Below, piece by piece: positions 1,794 to 18,336 of a stretch of DNA of 20,000 bases. A program made the position numbers and the translations under genes. The notes beneath the pieces are model-generated. The model was given only the letters and a program-made list of their open reading frames with translations, was not told the origin of the DNA and did not search any database. Every line of letters starts with the position of its first letter. The stretch's first letter is position 1. Source of the DNA: an uncultured virus (IMG/VR IMGVR_UViG_3300025120_000039) (lineage: Duplodnaviria > Heunggongvirae > Uroviricota > Caudoviricetes); the IMG/VR virus record IMGVR_UViG_3300025120_000039; one strand, 5' to 3'.

Positions 1794-2846
1794 TTATTTT
1801 TCTGATTTAACCATATCTATGTAAACTTCTTTTATGTTTTCATCGCTTCTAACCCAAGGTGCTCTTTTTTCTAACACTTTTCTACTTCCTTTTGCCGTTA
1901 CCCATATTTGTTTAGTAGGTCCATATTTCTTATAGTTCTTAAACTCCATATCATCTATAAACATATCACTAAAAAATATCAAACACATTTCATAGTCAGG
2001 GTTTTCTTTTTGTTTTGTTCTTTCAATATCACCAAGTTTTCTGAATGCTCCCTCAAAATTCGTTCCCCCTCCTCCGTGATAAATAATTCTTTTATCTACA
2101 TCTTTCAAAGGTTCTTCTGCATTTGGTACACCAAATTTTGGGTCTTTGTCATAATCACTCATTTTACAATCATCACATACCCACATTTGCCCTGAATACT
2201 TTTTTGCTAAATCAGGTATGAACTGCGATAAAAGGTCTAAAAACGAAACCCCTGCCTCTGTATAGCTTCCCATACTTCCGGATTGGTCAAGCAAAACAAT
2301 AACTTCTTTGTCATCATCTATTACTTTTGACTTTGCCTTTCTAAATACTGCTATACCTTGAGAAATATATGTTTGGGCTCCTTCATAATCTATGTTTTTT
2401 CTTCCCATTTTAGGTAAGCCTATTAACTCTCCTATACCTGCTTCTATTTTACTAAACCACTCAGGCTCTCCTCCTTCACTTTCAGGAACTGCCATACTGC
2501 CTATTTCTCCACCTTTTCCTTCTCCTATTGCATCCGGAGGTAGTATATACTCTCCATCGGGAAATTTTATTTTGTTGCTTAAAATCTCAGCTTTTATTTC
2601 ACTAACATTAAACTCTGCCTCTCTAATATCTTTTAAGTCTTGAGCAGTTAACTGTTCGTTTTCATTAAAAGCATTTTTTTCAATTGAACCACAAGAATCA
2701 GGCATATCTGCCGTAATAGGATTAAGTATCTTATTTTGGGCTTTTATATCATCTTTTAGCCTACCAACAAGACCTTCAAGATTTTCATTTAATCCTGAAA
2801 TAATATCATTATATTTTTCTTCTTTTTGCTTGTAATTCATTACCAT
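1794..2846 (-). CDS. vWA-domain protein (DUF2201 C-terminal/vWA-like) with N-terminal coiled coil
   Basis: MIDAS motif VLLDQSGSM, GGGGTNF, LIFFSDM. Confidence 0.85.
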   Translation of the reverse strand: MVMNYKQKEEKYNDIISGLNENLEGLVGRLKDDIKAQNKILNPITADMPDSCGSIEKNAFNENEQLTAQDLKDIREAEFNVSEIKAEILSNKIKFPDGEYILPPDAIGEGKGGEIGSMAVPESEGGEPEWFSKIEAGIGELIGLPKMGRKNIDYEGAQTYISQGIAVFRKAKSKVIDDDKEVIVLLDQSGSMGSYTEAGVSFLDLLSQFIPDLAKKYSGQMWVCDDCKMSDYDKDPKFGVPNAEEPLKDVDKRIIYHGGGGTNFEGAFRKLGDIERTKQKENPDYEMCLIFFSDMFIDDMEFKNYKKYGPTKQIWVTAKGSRKVLEKRAPWVRSDENIKEVYIDMVKSEK

Positions 2847-3055
2847 TTATTTTGGGGACAATTTTGTCCTCTTAATGCAGTTTTTGCTTTTAAAATACAC
2901 CCACAAGTTAGTTGTCTACCACTTCTATCGTATTCAGGTCTTAATAAAGTTCCACAAGTAAGTCCAACTCCAAAAGTCTGTTTTGAATAGGGACATCTTG
3001 CACAGATATTTAACCTGTCTTGTGCCGTTAATTCTCTAGGTGTGTTATTCCACAT
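2840..3055 (-). CDS. small Cys-rich putative metal-binding protein (DUF6171-like)
   Basis: RLNICARCP...CG...CGCILKAKT...CPQNKW pattern typical of a widespread small phage/bacterial family. Confidence 0.7.
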   Translation of the reverse strand: MWNNTPRELTAQDRLNICARCPYSKQTFGVGLTCGTLLRPEYDRSGRQLTCGCILKAKTALRGQNCPQNKW

Positions 3056-3059
3056 ACTA

Positions 3060-4631
3060 TTATTGTTTTAATTCTTCTAACTCTTCTAATGCAACATCTA
3101 TATACATCATCTCTTCTTGTGTCAACTTATCTTTATGCTTTAACTTAATACTATTAAAATTGTCTATTGACTTATTAATGTTTTTTGTTAAGTTGATGTC
3201 TTTTATTTTTTCCTCTAAATCTTCTTTTCTTTTTGTTTGTTCTTCTGTCCAATCAGGAATATCATTAGCATCAAAATCTGACTCTTCCTCTTTTTCATTT
3301 TCTCCTTTTCCCTCTGCCTCTCCTTCTCCTTCTCCTTCTGCTTTTTCTTCTCCCTCTTCTTCGTTTACTTTGCTATCTCCTTCATTTTCATCTTGTTCCG
3401 TGTCTGACTGCGAACCTGAGCCTGAGCCATCTTCTACATCCTCATCTTCATCCTCACTTAACTCATCTGACCATACACCATCTCCTTGATTATTTCCATC
3501 TACTCCTCCGTTTAATAAATCCTCAAGTATTTCTTCTTTTTCTTTAATTATATCTTCCGGAGTTTTGTTTTCATCACCTTTTCCATCTGCACCTTCTCCA
3601 TCTCCACTTTCTCCATCTCCACTTTCTCCATCTCCACTTTCTCCATCATCATCATCTCCTCCTGAATCTCCTCCTTGACCTTCATCTCCATCATCATCAT
3701 CTCCGTATTCTCCTTGTTGCCCTTCTTCTTCAGGTATAGCTGATATTATTTGTGATTTAGTAAATACTCCAAGTAAATCTCCGCTTGTCGTTAGTTGCAT
3801 TCTTGATTCTTTTACTGCATCCATTAACGAATTGAATTCTTCTTCACTTATACTTTCTACAACATAATTTCCTTCTTCATCTATATCTACTATTTTGCCG
3901 GGGTCACCATTGTAAGGAGATTCGTTTGTATTAATTATTACATAATCTCCTATTTCAAAACCTTTTGGCTCTTCTTTATCTTGCTCCTTATCATTCTCTT
4001 GCTTTTGTCTTTTATTAGCTTTATTAAATTTATTAGCTATAATCCACCACTCAGGAATGTAAGGGTTATCCTCATCGTAAGGCAAATCAATCTTACCAAA
4101 TTGTTCTTCAGGAACTAAAAGAGATTGGTCTTTGTCCTTAAAATTCATACACTTATAAACCTCTAACAATCCGCTTCTACTTAGTTGGTCGTTTATTCTG
4201 ATGTCCATACAACAATTAGCATTACGAACATCACTAAAAGGCATTGTAAGTAAGCAATCTCCCCTTAATATATGACCCATTTCGTGTCTAAATGCGGCTT
4301 TCATAGCAGGTTCCCAATAGCACATATATTTAGTAAATGTTGGATAGCCTATATAAAATCTTTTTTTCTTTCTTGAATATGCTGAGTAAAAAGTAGTGGC
4401 TTTTGGGTCATAATAAAGCAATATATCATTTGGTATCATTCCTGCTTCTCTAATCAAATCATCAAGAACACCTAATCTAAATTCATCAGATATTCTTTTT
4501 AAATTTTGTGTAATTCTAGCCGAACTATTTTTTAATGCCTGAAATTTAAATTCACCAATATCATCTTTGGTACTTTTCATATAAAAGTCCCAAAACTTAC
4601 CCCAATCAGTATAATACTTATGTTCTGACAT
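3060..4631 (-). CDS. putative zincin metallopeptidase (DUF2201 N-terminal-like) with KOW/SH3-like segment and long acidic Gly/Asp/Glu tail
   Basis: RHEMGHIL (HEXXH) followed by ANCCMDIRINDQL (cf. NxAxDxxIN); FEIGDYVII..PYNGDPGKIVDI KOW-like; acidic low-complexity C-half. Confidence 0.8.
   Translation of the reverse strand: MSEHKYYTDWGKFWDFYMKSTKDDIGEFKFQALKNSSARITQNLKRISDEFRLGVLDDLIREAGMIPNDILLYYDPKATTFYSAYSRKKKRFYIGYPTFTKYMCYWEPAMKAAFRHEMGHILRGDCLLTMPFSDVRNANCCMDIRINDQLSRSGLLEVYKCMNFKDKDQSLLVPEEQFGKIDLPYDEDNPYIPEWWIIANKFNKANKRQKQENDKEQDKEEPKGFEIGDYVIINTNESPYNGDPGKIVDIDEEGNYVVESISEEEFNSLMDAVKESRMQLTTSGDLLGVFTKSQIISAIPEEEGQQGEYGDDDDGDEGQGGDSGGDDDDGESGDGESGDGESGDGEGADGKGDENKTPEDIIKEKEEILEDLLNGGVDGNNQGDGVWSDELSEDEDEDVEDGSGSGSQSDTEQDENEGDSKVNEEEGEEKAEGEGEGEAEGKGENEKEEESDFDANDIPDWTEEQTKRKEDLEEKIKDINLTKNINKSIDNFNSIKLKHKDKLTQEEMMYIDVALEELEELKQ
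3595..3647. repeat. 15-bp tandem repeat (tctccatctccactt x3.5) encoding GDGES repeats
   Basis: Three exact copies at 3595, 3610 and 3625 plus a partial copy, inside the acidic linker. Confidence 0.9.
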
Positions 4632-6916
4632 TATAGCTTTTCAATTAATTCTTTTAATCTAACTCCATTTCCTGATTCCTTCATTCTTTCGTTTAAACTT
4701 CCTTCATAGAACCTATTAAGTATTGATTTAACTCTAGGGTTTTTAAAGAAATTCATTACTTTTTCTGATTCCCCTCCATTTTTACTTTCTTGTAAAAACT
4801 TAATATATTTTTCGTTATCTGCTAAAGTTGAATCAAAAAATGATGCGAAAGCACCCATAAAGTAATATCTAATATAAAGGCTTAAAGAAAGTGAGTTTTC
4901 ATAATTGTTTAGTCCGTATAATCCACTTTGCTCTTGACTTTTTCTTTGAGCAGGTTTCATACCTCTTAACTTAGATTTAGTTTCACCATACATCAGTTTT
5001 TCTGTCTGTTCAGCATCTACTTTAAGAGTATGTGTTTCAATTTCACCTTCTTTATTTAAAAACTTTTCAAAAAAGTTATTTACTTCTAAAATTTGCTTTG
5101 TAAATAAATCGGAATCTATTTGAGTATCTCCTCTAAGATTTATCATTATTTGCTGATATATAAAAGGAATCATTTTATCTCCTACATTTGCTAATTGGTC
5201 ATAATTTCCTGCTTGATTTTCGTTAGATGCTTGAATATGTGATAATGCGTTTAATGTCCAAGAAGTTAGCTTTGATGGATTTCCATTAGTTTGAGCATAG
5301 CTATTTGATAACTCTAATTGAAGATAATTGAAGTAATCCTTTTGATAATCTTTAAATGATAGTGCAATTTCGTTTCTCAATCTCATTACAGGACTTATAT
5401 TTCCACCTCCTACTTTTGATGCTCCTGCTAATGATGCCCCAAAACTTTCCTCATCACTCTCAGTATATAATTCTTCAGCTAAACATAGCCATAATGCACC
5501 TAAACTTTCATAATAGTTTTTTAATCCGGGGTCACTTTTATAATTTGACTTTCCTCCAAGATAATTATCTCTCCAAATCATTCCCCAAGCAGTATCATTA
5601 AAAACCTTGTCATCATTTGACAAAAGCCTTACTGCTGATGACATATCTCCTCTTGCCTTTCCTAATATTTTTTGAAAATATGAACTAAAGTTTTGATAAA
5701 AATAATTTCCACTTCTATCTCTTTTATTTAGCATTTTTGGTAAAAAGCTATATTGCCATTGTAAGTTAACTTCATCAAGAAAAGCTACTTTCTTTAGTAG
5801 CAATGAAACATCCATATCATTAGGACCAAATTTATCTACACAATCCATTACTTTGGTTGCATTTTTATCCGGTGGATATAATGCCATTGTGCTTCTCATA
5901 ATTATTTGACAAAATCTTCTAAATAGTGCTTCCTCAATATCATTAGTGGCATTTGCTATTCCAACTATTCTACAATCCATTAAAGGCAATCCTTTAGATA
6001 CTTGAGAACGAACTAAATCTGCCATATTACGATAATCTCCATAATCAACATCTAATGGAATTGGCATTCCCTTTTTGTTGTTTATTTCTTTCATTGTCCA
6101 ACTTTTCAATGTTCTTTCACGAACAATATGTAACAATGGTGCATATTTTTCTTTTTCGTGTTCACTTACCTTATCTAACTCATCAAGTATTAACCAATAA
6201 TTACCATAACCTAAAATAGTACACAAATACATACATAAGTCCCGTATATCATCTCTTCCTGCTTCTAACGCATCTAATGTGTACTCGTATGCAGTTTCTG
6301 CCTGTACTGCCGTTTCAGGACTTCTTTTGAACACAAATTCTTTTGAATTTAATATTTCACGAGTAGTAGCATCTGATAAATTGTTTTTTCCACTATCTAC
6401 CAACTGAGCACTAACCTCTTGTTCGCCTTCAGGATAATCTAATTCCATCAATGCTATTAATATTTGATGAAGTATTTTGTATGAATAAGAAAATTTTGTT
6501 TGAGGTTTATCATAAACCTTTATGTAGTTGTCAAAAATTGTTTGACCATTTGCTACTTGCGTAGAAATTGTACTACTATTTGGAAACCAATAAGGTTTTA
6601 AGAATTTTAAAATATCTTCTCCTGTTCTTATTTTTTTACCCTCACTATCTCTTTCTGTATCGTAATCTTTACTAATTAATTTTGCTAATCCTTCTATGTT
6701 TTCAGGCTTTTCTGAACCAATGTAAAGCATAGATGAAGGAAGCCTCCATTTTTCTGTAATTTGTAATAAAGTATAAGACTTACCAATTGATGATTTTCCT
6801 ACAATTAAAACAGGTATATCATATCTTACGAGTTGTAAAATAGTTTTTAGTGTTTCGGTTCCTATTTTATCTTTTTCAATTCTTAAATTTTGTATTTCTT
6901 TATTGTCCCGTGCCAT
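4631..6916 (-). CDS. MoxR/AAA_5-like AAA+ ATPase with ~125-aa insertion and long C-terminal extension
   Basis: Walker A PVLIVGKSSIGKS, KPYWFP, Walker B LILDELDK, sensor-1 RIVGIAN, Arg finger IEEALFRRF. Confidence 0.85.
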   Translation of the reverse strand: MARDNKEIQNLRIEKDKIGTETLKTILQLVRYDIPVLIVGKSSIGKSYTLLQITEKWRLPSSMLYIGSEKPENIEGLAKLISKDYDTERDSEGKKIRTGEDILKFLKPYWFPNSSTISTQVANGQTIFDNYIKVYDKPQTKFSYSYKILHQILIALMELDYPEGEQEVSAQLVDSGKNNLSDATTREILNSKEFVFKRSPETAVQAETAYEYTLDALEAGRDDIRDLCMYLCTILGYGNYWLILDELDKVSEHEKEKYAPLLHIVRERTLKSWTMKEINNKKGMPIPLDVDYGDYRNMADLVRSQVSKGLPLMDCRIVGIANATNDIEEALFRRFCQIIMRSTMALYPPDKNATKVMDCVDKFGPNDMDVSLLLKKVAFLDEVNLQWQYSFLPKMLNKRDRSGNYFYQNFSSYFQKILGKARGDMSSAVRLLSNDDKVFNDTAWGMIWRDNYLGGKSNYKSDPGLKNYYESLGALWLCLAEELYTESDEESFGASLAGASKVGGGNISPVMRLRNEIALSFKDYQKDYFNYLQLELSNSYAQTNGNPSKLTSWTLNALSHIQASNENQAGNYDQLANVGDKMIPFIYQQIMINLRGDTQIDSDLFTKQILEVNNFFEKFLNKEGEIETHTLKVDAEQTEKLMYGETKSKLRGMKPAQRKSQEQSGLYGLNNYENSLSLSLYIRYYFMGAFASFFDSTLADNEKYIKFLQESKNGGESEKVMNFFKNPRVKSILNRFYEGSLNERMKESGNGVRLKELIEKL

Positions 6917-17169: not shown

Positions 17170-17238
17170 TTTTTGTTTATTTATTAAATTGTATCTGTTT
17201 ATCATTTTTTTAAGTTTACTATTATATAAAAATTATAT

Positions 17239-17358
17239 AAAAAAGAGAGATGTATTACCGAGTCAAAATATTACTCAAAAATATAAAACCCCGGACTTAT
17301 ACCTCACGGAATATTTAACAATTTATCAAGTTGCTAATTATATAAGTCATCTCTCTTT
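17239..17358 (-). ncRNA. structured intergenic RNA element / long-loop terminator
   Basis: 11-bp perfect inverted repeat aaagagagatg (17242-52)/catctctcttt (17348-58) closing inner stems (GACTTATA/TATAAGTC; CC-GTGA-GG; GAGT/ACTC), followed by a U-tract on minus. Confidence 0.55.
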
Positions 17359-17363
17359 ATATA

Positions 17364-17639
17364 TTAATTTATTTCGCTTCTATCACAAATAAGTGCATTA
17401 CCAACTATATAGTCGTGTTCATTTGTAAGTTTTCTAAAATGATATGTAGCGACATCATTAATTGACTTGTTATTTAGCTTTCCTTCTTCATCTATTATCA
17501 TAATATATTTATCTAGGTAAACAAATTCTACCATAGAACAATCAATAATTTTATATAATTCTTGTAATGTAAATGTTTTACCGTTTTCAGGTTTAACATC
17601 AATAGGTTCAGTAACATTAATTTTAAATAATTTTGCCAT
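17364..17639 (-). CDS. DUF3846-like protein
   Basis: FTLQELYKII..MVEFV..MIIDEEGKL..INDVAT..DYIVGNALIC. Confidence 0.8.
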   Translation of the reverse strand: MAKLFKINVTEPIDVKPENGKTFTLQELYKIIDCSMVEFVYLDKYIMIIDEEGKLNNKSINDVATYHFRKLTNEHDYIVGNALICDRSEIN

Positions 17640-17685
17640 TTATAAAGTTTTTATGTGTGAAGTTGATTTTGATTTCATATATACA

Positions 17686-17717
17686 CAAATATATAATTAT
17701 TTTTAAAAACATAGCAA
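17686..17717 (-). promoter_or_regulatory. Bacteroidota-type promoter (-33 TTG / -7 TATATTTG)
   Basis: TATATTTG at 17693-17686 and TTG at 17717-17715, 21-nt spacer. Confidence 0.65.
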
Positions 17718-17792
17718 TATATTTTAGGAAATGTGAATGCCCTAGTGATTTGAGCAAAAAAAAATATATAAAAAAGTAAATTTTATAAATGT

Positions 17793-17822
17793 AAAAGGGC
17801 TCAGTATTAACCGAGCCCTTTT
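17793..17822. terminator. rho-independent terminator, potentially bidirectional
   Basis: aaaagggctc-agtattaacc-gagccctttt, perfect 10-bp inverted repeat. Confidence 0.8.
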
Positions 17823-17877
17823 AGGGAAATCAAAATCCACATTAATTAATAGCGGACAAGGGATTGTCCTTGTGGAG
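17793..17877 (-). ncRNA. candidate ~85-nt small RNA
   Basis: TATATTTG at 17888-17881 upstream; nested stems TCCACA/TGTGGA and GGACAA/TTGTCC; ends at the terminator hairpin; no evident coding ORF. Confidence 0.6.
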
Positions 17878-17880
17878 ATT

Positions 17881-17888
17881 CAAATATA
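17881..17888 (-). promoter_or_regulatory. Bacteroidota-type -7 element TATATTTG driving the candidate sRNA
   Basis: Same octamer as at 11979 and 17686. Confidence 0.6.
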
Positions 17889-17955: not shown

Positions 17956-18336
17956 TTATATATAAGGTTTATATGACTTATGTTCTTTTATATCAGAATT
18001 AGAATTATGATTTATTATATTTTTTATATTCATTCTTTCATCATTTGTTATATAAACACTTCGTGCTAATTCTATAAAAATATCATCGAATTCTTTATTC
18101 CTTTCTTTATCTCTAATATCATCTTCTATTTTCCATAGCTTATAATTTATTTTATATATATCATTATATAATTTTGCTAATTCTTTATTTAAAAATTTAT
18201 TATAAATAATAAGTAATAAATTATATTCTTTATTTATATCAATTAATTTTTTTTTATTTTTTATTTCTATTTTTTTTATAGAAAGTATTGATAGTTTGTC
18301 TATAACTTCTCCAAGTGATACGGGTATGTTTATCAT
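17956..18336 (-). CDS. DUF6165-like protein
   Basis: IPVSLGEVIDKLSILSIK...INYKLWKIEDDIRDKE...FIELARSVYITNDER..IK..IN...EHKSY. Confidence 0.85.
   Translation of the reverse strand: MINIPVSLGEVIDKLSILSIKKIEIKNKKKLIDINKEYNLLLIIYNKFLNKELAKLYNDIYKINYKLWKIEDDIRDKERNKEFDDIFIELARSVYITNDERMNIKNIINHNSNSDIKEHKSYKPYI

Follow-up and report, generated by a model that had tools for sequence, protein, structure and literature searches.

A candidate tandemly encoded small RNA predicted to dock on the 5' end of the adjacent DUF3846 message in a virus of a Bacteroidota-type host

Does the compact, hairpin-rich unit that precedes the DUF3846 gene in the 20,000-nt stretch of viral DNA analysed here (the window) encode a small RNA, and would such an RNA act on the beginning of the next message? 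A sequence-only reading of positions 17640-17888 had proposed both, in the manner of a type I antitoxin or a phage timing switch. The window belongs to G000, a 65,258-nt virus record whose minus strand carries nearly all genes; the sRNA and DUF3846 units, their flanking genes and the structured RNA after DUF3846, all described below, lie on that strand. A Shine-Dalgarno-like word precedes only one of its 85 ORFs. The box TATATTTG occurs seven times on the minus strand of G000, six times outside ATG-started ORFs, which leave 6.7% of the record free; since one of these six boxes (11079) falls within a TTG-started ORF, five intergenic copies out of seven is the safer count. The primary promoter box of Bacteroidota is described as TAnnTTTG at -12 to -5 (PMC9723704), and Bacteroidota-type mRNAs as being devoid of Shine-Dalgarno sequences (PMC6847099). 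Because Shine-Dalgarno-like words are rare and a box of this type is mostly intergenic, the record fits a Bacteroidota-type host, which is a predicted type only.

One metagenome scan returned 21 loci, of which the 18 syntenic ones were used and the distant, non-syntenic L028-L030 were left out. The close relatives are metagenome assemblies, including Tara, and the runs holding most of the stretch are marine. DUF3846 identity among the 18 relatives ranges from 54 to 100%. Together with the window they make 19 loci in six lineages: A (the window and L010-13), B (L014-16), C (L017-18), D (L019-21 and L027), E (L022-25) and F (L026). Lineages A and B form a starred clade in the trees, while the two trees place C differently, neither time with a star.

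A candidate small RNA gene upstream of DUF3846

The predicted RNA of about 87 nt (17876-17790) follows a TATATTTG box at 17888-17881, a -7 promoter box of Bacteroidota type that precedes the unit in all 16 loci carrying it. This box, the hairpin region at 17876-17836 and a second TATATTTG at 17693-17686 are found on the minus strand exactly as first read, and the terminator is confirmed with a 14-bp stem at 17823-17792 instead of 17822-17793. In the conserved fold a stem P1 (W-CCAC/GUGG-W; in the window UCCAC at 17876-17872 and GUGGA at 17840-17836) encloses the hairpin P2 (17869-17854), made of five pairs that never vary (GGACA/UGUCC) and an invariant UCCC loop (17863-17860). An internal-loop strand of P1 (17853-17841), in which only GCU is common to all lineages, leads back to the P1 3' strand. 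Beyond P1 lies a predicted single-stranded seed (17835-17826) containing the invariant UUUGAUUUC and the core UUGAUUUC (17833-17826), followed by an intrinsic-terminator-like hairpin of 13-14 bp whose A-run and T-run could serve both strands. The predicted +1, taken as the fifth base past the promoter box, coincides in 15 of 16 loci with the 5'-most base of P1. In the exception, L019, the proximal box has decayed and the predicted start is shifted upstream.

A covariance model (R1), built from eight of the sequences that it then recovers, scores the unit at 72-106 bits in 16 of the 19 loci and matches nothing else in the 35 sources searched; of the three loci without a match, L023 is truncated upstream and the other two are lineage C (L017/L018). 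Promoter, fold and terminator are kept in these 16 loci, spread over five lineages, which supports the claim of a self-contained small RNA gene, and at the sequence level the unit, with its own promoter and intrinsic terminator, overlaps no other gene. It is present in a single copy in G000. Beyond chance-level rows, Rfam gave no match for the window (E<=5) or for five loci (E<=10).

The unit folds with a z-score of -6.55 (none of 200 shuffles equal), a value due mostly to the terminator. In an alignment of eight distinct sequences pairing extends to 96.7% of cells, whereas slid controls reach 32-52%. Changes on both sides occur at four of 23 pairs, one in P1 and three among the 13 terminator pairs; the P1 closing pair alternates between U-A and A-U among lineages. 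P2 shows no variation and consequently no covariation support, and the count of covarying pairs alone does not exceed that of shuffles (154 of 500). Since, in addition, the alignment was fitted to the model, P1 and P2 are only modestly supported. A competing fold that would sequester the seed lies 0.9 kcal/mol lower in the window, although it is not conserved; opening the seed costs 0.5 kcal/mol there, and 0.1-1.2 kcal/mol in all six representatives (37 C).

The distance between the upstream DUF6165 gene (17956-18336) and the sRNA promoter varies by lineage from 11 to 137 nt, and the unit keeps its own promoter despite insertions of 127-137 nt that separate it from that gene in some D, E and F loci. 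L022, L024 and L025 carry a 133-nt insertion with its own hairpin past the DUF6165 stop, and L021, L026 and L027 a different one of 127-137 nt. In L020 (98-113), as well as in L021, L026 and L027, the sRNA is preceded by a tandem pair of promoter boxes 8 nt apart. Four RNA runs of the 21 listed were compared as assembled contigs, a form in which short RNAs are lost; positions 17818-17868 are uncovered and parts of DUF3846 and of the region downstream are covered, a pattern that weighs neither for nor against the sRNA. Taking the conserved architecture and the models together, it is very probable that a real sRNA gene lies at 17876-17790.

Predicted pairing with the start of the DUF3846 message

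The predicted target, a 91-aa gene (17639-17364, ATG at 17639; PF12957, E 8.5e-11), is preceded in all 19 loci by its own TATATTTG box (17693-17686), which places the predicted +1 at 17681. An AT-rich spacer (17789-17694; 96-104 nt in all seven representatives) with a conserved upstream promoter element, TTTTTAAAAATA, separates this box from the sRNA. The same element (window 17694-17740 and 11986, G000:C1:30335) lies upstream of several TATATTTG boxes and not of the sRNA promoter, a distribution that suggests two promoter classes or the site of a phage regulator. The target site GAAAUCAAAAUC (17676-17665) occupies +6 to +17 of the message, and its core GAAAUYAA (17676-17669) is found in 17 of 19 loci.

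The 12-mer GATTTTGATTTC (17837-17826) on the sRNA side is the exact complement of GAAATCAAAATC (17676-17665), both at the places first given, and the 12-mer occurs nowhere else in the 65,258-nt contig; a post-hoc composition estimate gives a chance of about 1e-5 for such a match in a 42-nt leader. The complementarity of the proposed 12-nt seed therefore stands, but its length as a free strand does not: two of the nucleotides, 17837-17836, sit in the conserved P1 stem, so that the free seed pairs 10 nt in the window.

Across lineages the core always begins at mRNA +1 to +6, yet it lies 17-39 nt from the AUG in leaders that are otherwise unalignable. Because the distance to +1 is fixed while that to the AUG varies, the site appears to track the transcription start and not the ribosome site. 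Over five lineages seven of the eight core columns are invariant, against none of the 12 columns that follow; the single core change, C to U in lineage E, retains a G-U pair. The sequence-only reading had staked itself on conserved complementarity between the sRNA and the start of the neighbouring message, and for the 8-nt core this conservation is borne out. The leaders are short and open (26-47 nt, with a site-opening cost of 0.2-0.9 kcal/mol at 37 C). With P1 intact, the predicted duplex of 8-11 bp reaches -8.6 to -10.8 kcal/mol at 37 C and -12.8 to -16.5 at 15 C. Its first pair falls at the predicted +1 in five of seven representatives and at +4 or +6 in the remaining two; the distance from its end to the AUG is 16-40 nt, and it enters the -20 to +20 initiation region in just two of five lineages.

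The specificity of this pairing was compared with several backgrounds. Dinucleotide-shuffled leaders paired as well as the cognate one in 7 (A), 11 (B), 115 (D1), 193 (D2), 5 (E1), 13 (E2) and 25 (F) of 2000 trials, D being the weak lineage. Among 85 leaders that of DUF3846 is the best (-12.9, against a mean of -5.0 and a standard deviation of 2.5), and it also ranks first among 13 promoter leaders, the next reaching -7.5. In genome-wide tile scans the site lies outside the top 15 of 6,522 and the top 14 of 13,046 tiles, other G-rich sites scoring higher. We found the core after no other intergenic TAnnTTTG box in G000 or in the loci examined, and a promoter box followed by GAAATYAA occurs 211 times in 61 Bacteroidia genomes (about 3.5 per genome), compared with 114 for the reversed control. 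Since no other phage box has the core and it is rare after Bacteroidia boxes, GAAAUYAA does not appear to be a general start motif.

Apparent compensatory changes, which the sequence-only reading had suggested seeking in related phages, are few and lie outside the core. At the seed edge an A-U pair (lineages A and B) is replaced by C-G in E, a single event, and lineages D and F have the sRNA of E without its change; at position -1 a U-A pair in B corresponds to A-U in D2, an apparent double change that is again a single event. Changes that keep a G-U pair are seen in B and E, and no compensatory change occurs inside the core. What the alignments reveal between seed and site is co-conservation and not covariation, the core being nearly invariant on both sides. 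A functional pairing of some kind between the sRNA and the DUF3846 leader is nevertheless probable on this evidence and that of the folding models.

Whole-molecule cofolding extends the contact farther along the leader, where the P1 3' strand and the internal loop pair across the start codon. In the window GCUAUU, from the internal-loop strand, pairs with AAUGGC at the start codon (17640-17635, paired to the sRNA in the dimer with P 0.93-0.96), and an AUGUG/CACAU helix also forms, in which the P1 3' strand exchanges its partner for the leader. The latter corresponds to the ATGTG/CACAT extension that had been noticed: CACAT is indeed present at 17657-17653, while the exact form is confined to lineage A (5 of 19 loci) and needs P1 to be open. 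The lineage B cofold has ten pairs on either side of a bulged U of the AUG. In shuffles that held the core and the coding start fixed and randomized the rest of the leader, the second contact was equalled in 14 (A), 7 (B) and 3 (B2) of 300 trials, in 202, 149 and 147 for D, 30 and 25 for E and 94 for F; in the modelled dimers, extension beyond the core is above leader shuffles in A and B, and the start-codon contact is not in D or F. Shuffling the internal loop had a clear effect in B only (1 of 100; A 18, D2 16, E2 25, F 29). The favoured A/B dimer covers the AUG (P 0.77-0.99 at most positions) and leaves 3-5 nt of the 5' end unpaired; in E1 and F hardly any pairing of the AUG is predicted.

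Lineage C retains DUF3846, with no unit within about 3 kb in L017 or L018 when filters were off (best score 11.3 bits), and its leader departs from the core precisely where the two G-C pairs would lie. Since the position of C in the trees is unstable and unstarred, we infer a loss of the sRNA there and no more than infer it. This leader (L017:2519, L018:804) binds the type-2 sRNA in silico at -14.4, more strongly than any cognate type-2 pair (4 of 200 shuffles equal), in a pairing that spans the start codon, which weakens any argument from correlated loss. Such pairing may reflect an sRNA elsewhere in the genome, a vestige or chance. A different palindromic hairpin is found in the spacer of this lineage.

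A proposed repression and its alternatives

The reading we favour, at a probability of about 0.45, is that a tandemly encoded sRNA represses DUF3846 in trans, by docking on the 5' end of its message. A host-sigma promoter would drive an RNA of about 87 nt ending at its own terminator, whose exposed UUUGAUUUC seed, between the P1/P2 hairpin and the terminator, would dock on the first 8-15 nt of a message starting about 195 nt downstream. In the clade of the window, P1 would then open by strand displacement, and its G/U-rich 3' side would cover C/A-rich leader elements and the AUG. In other lineages only the seed duplex at the 5' end is supported and repression would have to act from afar, through masking of an enhancer or an S1 site. 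Translation of DUF3846, and probably also of the co-transcribed polymerase-like gene, would drop as the sRNA accumulates, setting a dose or timing limit on the early operon. From the sequence, its conservation, the predicted structure and the complementarity we infer transcription, the RNA ends, pairing in vivo, action in trans, the negative sign and the timing role alike; a limit on the early replication operon is plausible. Structure within -20 to +20 is reported to be inhibitory in Flavobacterium (PMC6847099), GibS is described as repressing near start codons in Bacteroides, for which that source gives no Hfq or ProQ homologue (PMC7366714), and repression through masked upstream enhancers has been documented (PMC3879156, PMC7534054).

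In the main rival reading the same pairing would have the opposite sign, the sRNA capping the mRNA 5' end against 5'-end-dependent decay and thereby raising expression of DUF3846 and the polymerase-like gene. That the site follows the transcription start, with a duplex at +1 in five of seven representatives and ending 16-40 nt from the AUG, speaks for protection, and FasX on ska and RoxS on yflS are described precedents (PMC4691137, PMC5419742). Against it, the A/B dimer covers the AUG while leaving the extreme 5' nucleotides free, RoxS counters RNase J1 whereas the B. thetaiotaomicron nucleases listed in the source include RNase G and not J (PMC7366714), and lineage C has gained no 5' hairpin after sRNA loss. 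We regard a protective role as unlikely.

Unlikely, too, is a real sRNA with its main role elsewhere, on host mRNAs reached by the same seed or the UCCC loop, or on a protein, for which the DUF3846 leader would be a secondary target or a titrating sponge. Conservation is stricter in the seed and the P2 loop than in the site, as in multi-target sRNAs, UCCC loops are reported to pair in other sRNAs (PMC4691137), and the 211 Bacteroidia occurrences of box plus core exceed the 114 of the control. These occurrences are few per genome, however, and a conserved G-rich partner was looked for in neighbouring genes and none was found.

The two elements might instead meet in one molecule: a read-through RNA would pair seed with site and so silence its own translation or, as a variant, short 5' DUF3846 products would bind the nascent upstream RNA and tune termination. 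Pairing in cis is indeed predicted with P 0.95-0.98 in six of seven read-through folds. The seed abuts the 5' arm of the terminator, with whose AGGG the CCCU of the P2 loop could form 4-5 bp, the site spans +1 to +15, the size of abortive products, and IsrK (PMC4825925) and T7 phi10/Tphi (PMC2952870) are described as precedents. Yet DUF3846 has its own promoter in all 19 loci and lineage F lacks the cis pairing; a 13-14-bp terminator should beat a 4-5-bp alternative, and the seed, unlike in Tphi, lies outside the terminator stem. We hold either version to be improbable. Very doubtful, in turn, is the idea of a start-transcript sensor, in which the seed would read the first 8-15 nt made from the downstream promoter, including abortive products; if true, it would provide feedback on the DUF3846-polymerase operon through 5'-end capping or tuning of terminator read-through, a promoter-to-promoter RNA loop keyed to +1 and not to the ribosome site.

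An incidental match between an unrelated conserved sRNA and a leader kept for initiation or translation has equally little probability. The phages are fairly close, with branch lengths below 0.15 for the 293-aa neighbour protein, and G/U-rich strands pair readily with A/C-rich leaders, as the leader background and lineage C illustrate. The leaders are otherwise divergent in sequence and length, however, the core stands at no other phage promoter and is rare after host-type boxes, and the 12-mer is unique in the contig.

Very improbable as well is a DNA-level inverted repeat, whether looping operators or the ends of an invertible segment carrying the DUF3846 promoter. The site overlaps +1 like an operator, and the seed-to-site distance is 153-162 bp in all seven representatives, but without a single helical phase. 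Moreover, the orientation is the same in the 16 loci with both elements, substitutions are of the G-U type, fine in RNA and mismatched between DNA copies, one copy occupies just the stretch that a structured RNA leaves unpaired as a linker, and no recombinase was found among the neighbours scanned.

A leader-peptide attenuator is scarcely credible: an 11-codon ORF (ATG 17843-17841) runs through the terminator 5' arm to a stop in its loop in five of six translated sequences, despite a 1-nt indel, but it is absent in lineage B, where a stop precedes the frame. Its start codon, TTG in D and E, lacks an A at -3 and borders on P1, whose pairing explains its letters. RNA-guided DNA targeting of the Cas9, Cas12 or TldR type was rejected, there being no fixed PAM by the site and no suitable scaffold; the seed region may resemble Bacteroidota type II-C CRISPR repeats, and Rfam gave no such match.

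Known systems, neighbouring genes and wider searches

The C4 RNA of P1 and P7 is a relative of the CI type of RNA from P4. P4 CI is described, like the RNA proposed here, as a structured phage small RNA making a short pairing with a same-strand neighbouring transcript, its CI/seqA/seqC pairing controlling early or replication genes (PMC4825925). It is processed from the transcript that it controls, with premature termination, whereas here the sRNA has its own promoter and terminator and the mRNA is separately promoted; the C4/CI family moreover belongs to a different host phylum, and the present RNA has no Rfam C4-type match and two stacked stems plus a terminator in place of a cloverleaf-like fold. 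IsrK of the Salmonella prophage Gifsy-1 is likewise reported as short, terminated and acting in trans on an RNA of its own locus (PMC4825925), but it activates a structured read-through isoform, while the leader here is short, open and has its own promoter. With FasX-ska and RoxS-yflS our candidate shares a predicted site at the extreme mRNA 5' end (+1 in five of seven, +4 and +6 in the others); those RNAs are chromosomal, unlinked to their targets, C-rich in their seeds, associated with Firmicutes nucleases and stabilising, in contrast to a U-rich seed, an adjacent phage gene as target and an A/B pairing that can cover the AUG.

GcvB and SgrS are Hfq-dependent. For both, repression is described as a masking of leader elements rich in A/C or AU (PMC3879156, PMC7534054), as proposed here. 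GibS of Bacteroides thetaiotaomicron also pairs in trans without Shine-Dalgarno or Hfq according to its description, although it is long and unstructured with a 30-50-nt 5' seed for start-codon regions (PMC7366714), whereas the present RNA is compact and its seed, 9 nt long, is internal. P22 sar, lambda OOP and aQ are presented as phage RNAs limiting a neighbouring regulator (PMC12197685), as in our proposal, but are encoded on the opposite strand with long perfect complementarity, compared with a tandem, same-strand arrangement and 8-14 bp here. The sRNA and DUF3846 units both lie on the minus strand, 150 nt apart, and the former is thus not a cis-encoded antisense RNA.

IstR-1, OrzO and AgrB are type I antitoxins with non-overlapping genes, and type I toxins are small membrane peptides (<60 aa), as a rule hydrophobic, with a long structured leader by which translation of the primary transcript is blocked. 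An sRNA gene lying beside its target, with a short match to the leader of the latter, recalls these systems, but the target here is no small hydrophobic peptide and has no long structured leader, and it may persist without its sRNA in lineage C, where none lies within about 3 kb. Because DUF3846 is modelled as a 91-aa globular alpha/beta protein and its leader of 26-47 nt is open, the likeness to a type I antitoxin first suggested must be abandoned. As a working likeness the closest are P4 CI or IsrK with a FasX-like site; with no Rfam match, its own promoter and a same-strand target, the RNA is a member of none of these.

The modelled DUF3846 fold (pLDDT 95.6) had no Foldseek match in the PDB at E<=0.001; the best VIA-align hit, HEN1 residues 220-329 (Z 5.2, rmsd 2.7, 79 aligned), is below the trusted level. 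BFVD and the ESM Atlas returned just DUF3846 or unnamed proteins, and PADLOC gave no match. A Pfam note reportedly connects the family with anti-restriction. In the literature searched DUF3846 received a single passing mention (PMC10343443). The 293-aa gene farther downstream (16985-16104) is probably co-transcribed with DUF3846, since it abuts it in lineages D and E. Its product, polymerase-like as a lead only, has invariant D-x-N-x-C and W-L-T-D-C motifs like those of a very small family B polymerase palm, an Atlas neighbour at 0.90 with PF03175 in 10% of members, large unnamed viral clusters and no PDB sequence match.

IMG/VR scanned with the DUF3846 protein gave only nine distant, non-syntenic loci, and scans with a DUF3846 alignment or the 293-aa protein gave none; one distant match was found among GenBank phages. 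Two sRNA patterns matched 1 and 35 IMG/VR stretches, all 36 of them chance matches without the architecture. The species genomes contained no DUF3846 relative and three sRNA pattern matches, all chance. Across 151 Bacteroidia genomes the RNA model gave 11 weak matches (23-31 bits), the five inspected being terminators. One Bacteroidia genome carries some six tandem 42-nt units between two convergent terminators (L073:1220-1480), which are unrelated. This RNA is undescribed in the literature searched on Bacteroidota phage sRNAs and phage trans-acting sRNAs, a body of text poor in subscription papers and without supplements. Catalogues of motifs that Rfam has yet to include could contain it. The main text of a 2025 phage-sRNA review contains neither "Bacteroid" nor "Flavobacter", its table of 38 RNAs lying outside that search (PMC12197685).

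By its sequence, then, this would be an undescribed phage sRNA with a probable adjacent target, and within the literature searched such control of the next gene's message start has probably not yet been described for viruses of this host group. Hosts of the Bacteroidota type have neither Shine-Dalgarno pairing nor Hfq, and in their viruses it would be a new RNA family whose target is named, adjacent and open to testing. Because its natural alleles span seed-only pairing, seed plus start-codon pairing and sRNA loss, they let one ask how sRNA control at the 5' end works without Shine-Dalgarno sequences. A dedicated control would also mark DUF3846, a widespread phage protein, as dose- or time-critical.

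Several further observations concern the surrounding DNA. Directly after the DUF3846 stop, 17360-17240 is predicted to fold as a multi-stem RNA with a U-run and a closing helix of 10 bp. Only L010-L016 keep this fold, in which one C-G/G-C double change and one G-U/G-C change are seen; it had no Rfam match and no IMG/VR pattern match. As a weak hint, 17198-17349 falls under one RNA contig at a depth of 16, against 2-4 for others in that run. Elsewhere in the window, three minus-strand genes at 1794-6916, encoding an ATPase (weak PHROG match) and then two proteins, one containing a long acidic linker and the other a DxSxS motif, resemble by eye a MoxR/vWA-type trio. In G000, C1:19483-20232 and 22515-23333 encode a beta-rich protein of 249 aa without a Pfam match and a 272-aa P-loop ATPase with weak DUF87/AAA_22 matches, among many proteins with a single membrane anchor; inspected by eye, these suggest a candidate non-tailed virus of jelly-roll type, although the Atlas taxa are Uroviricota.
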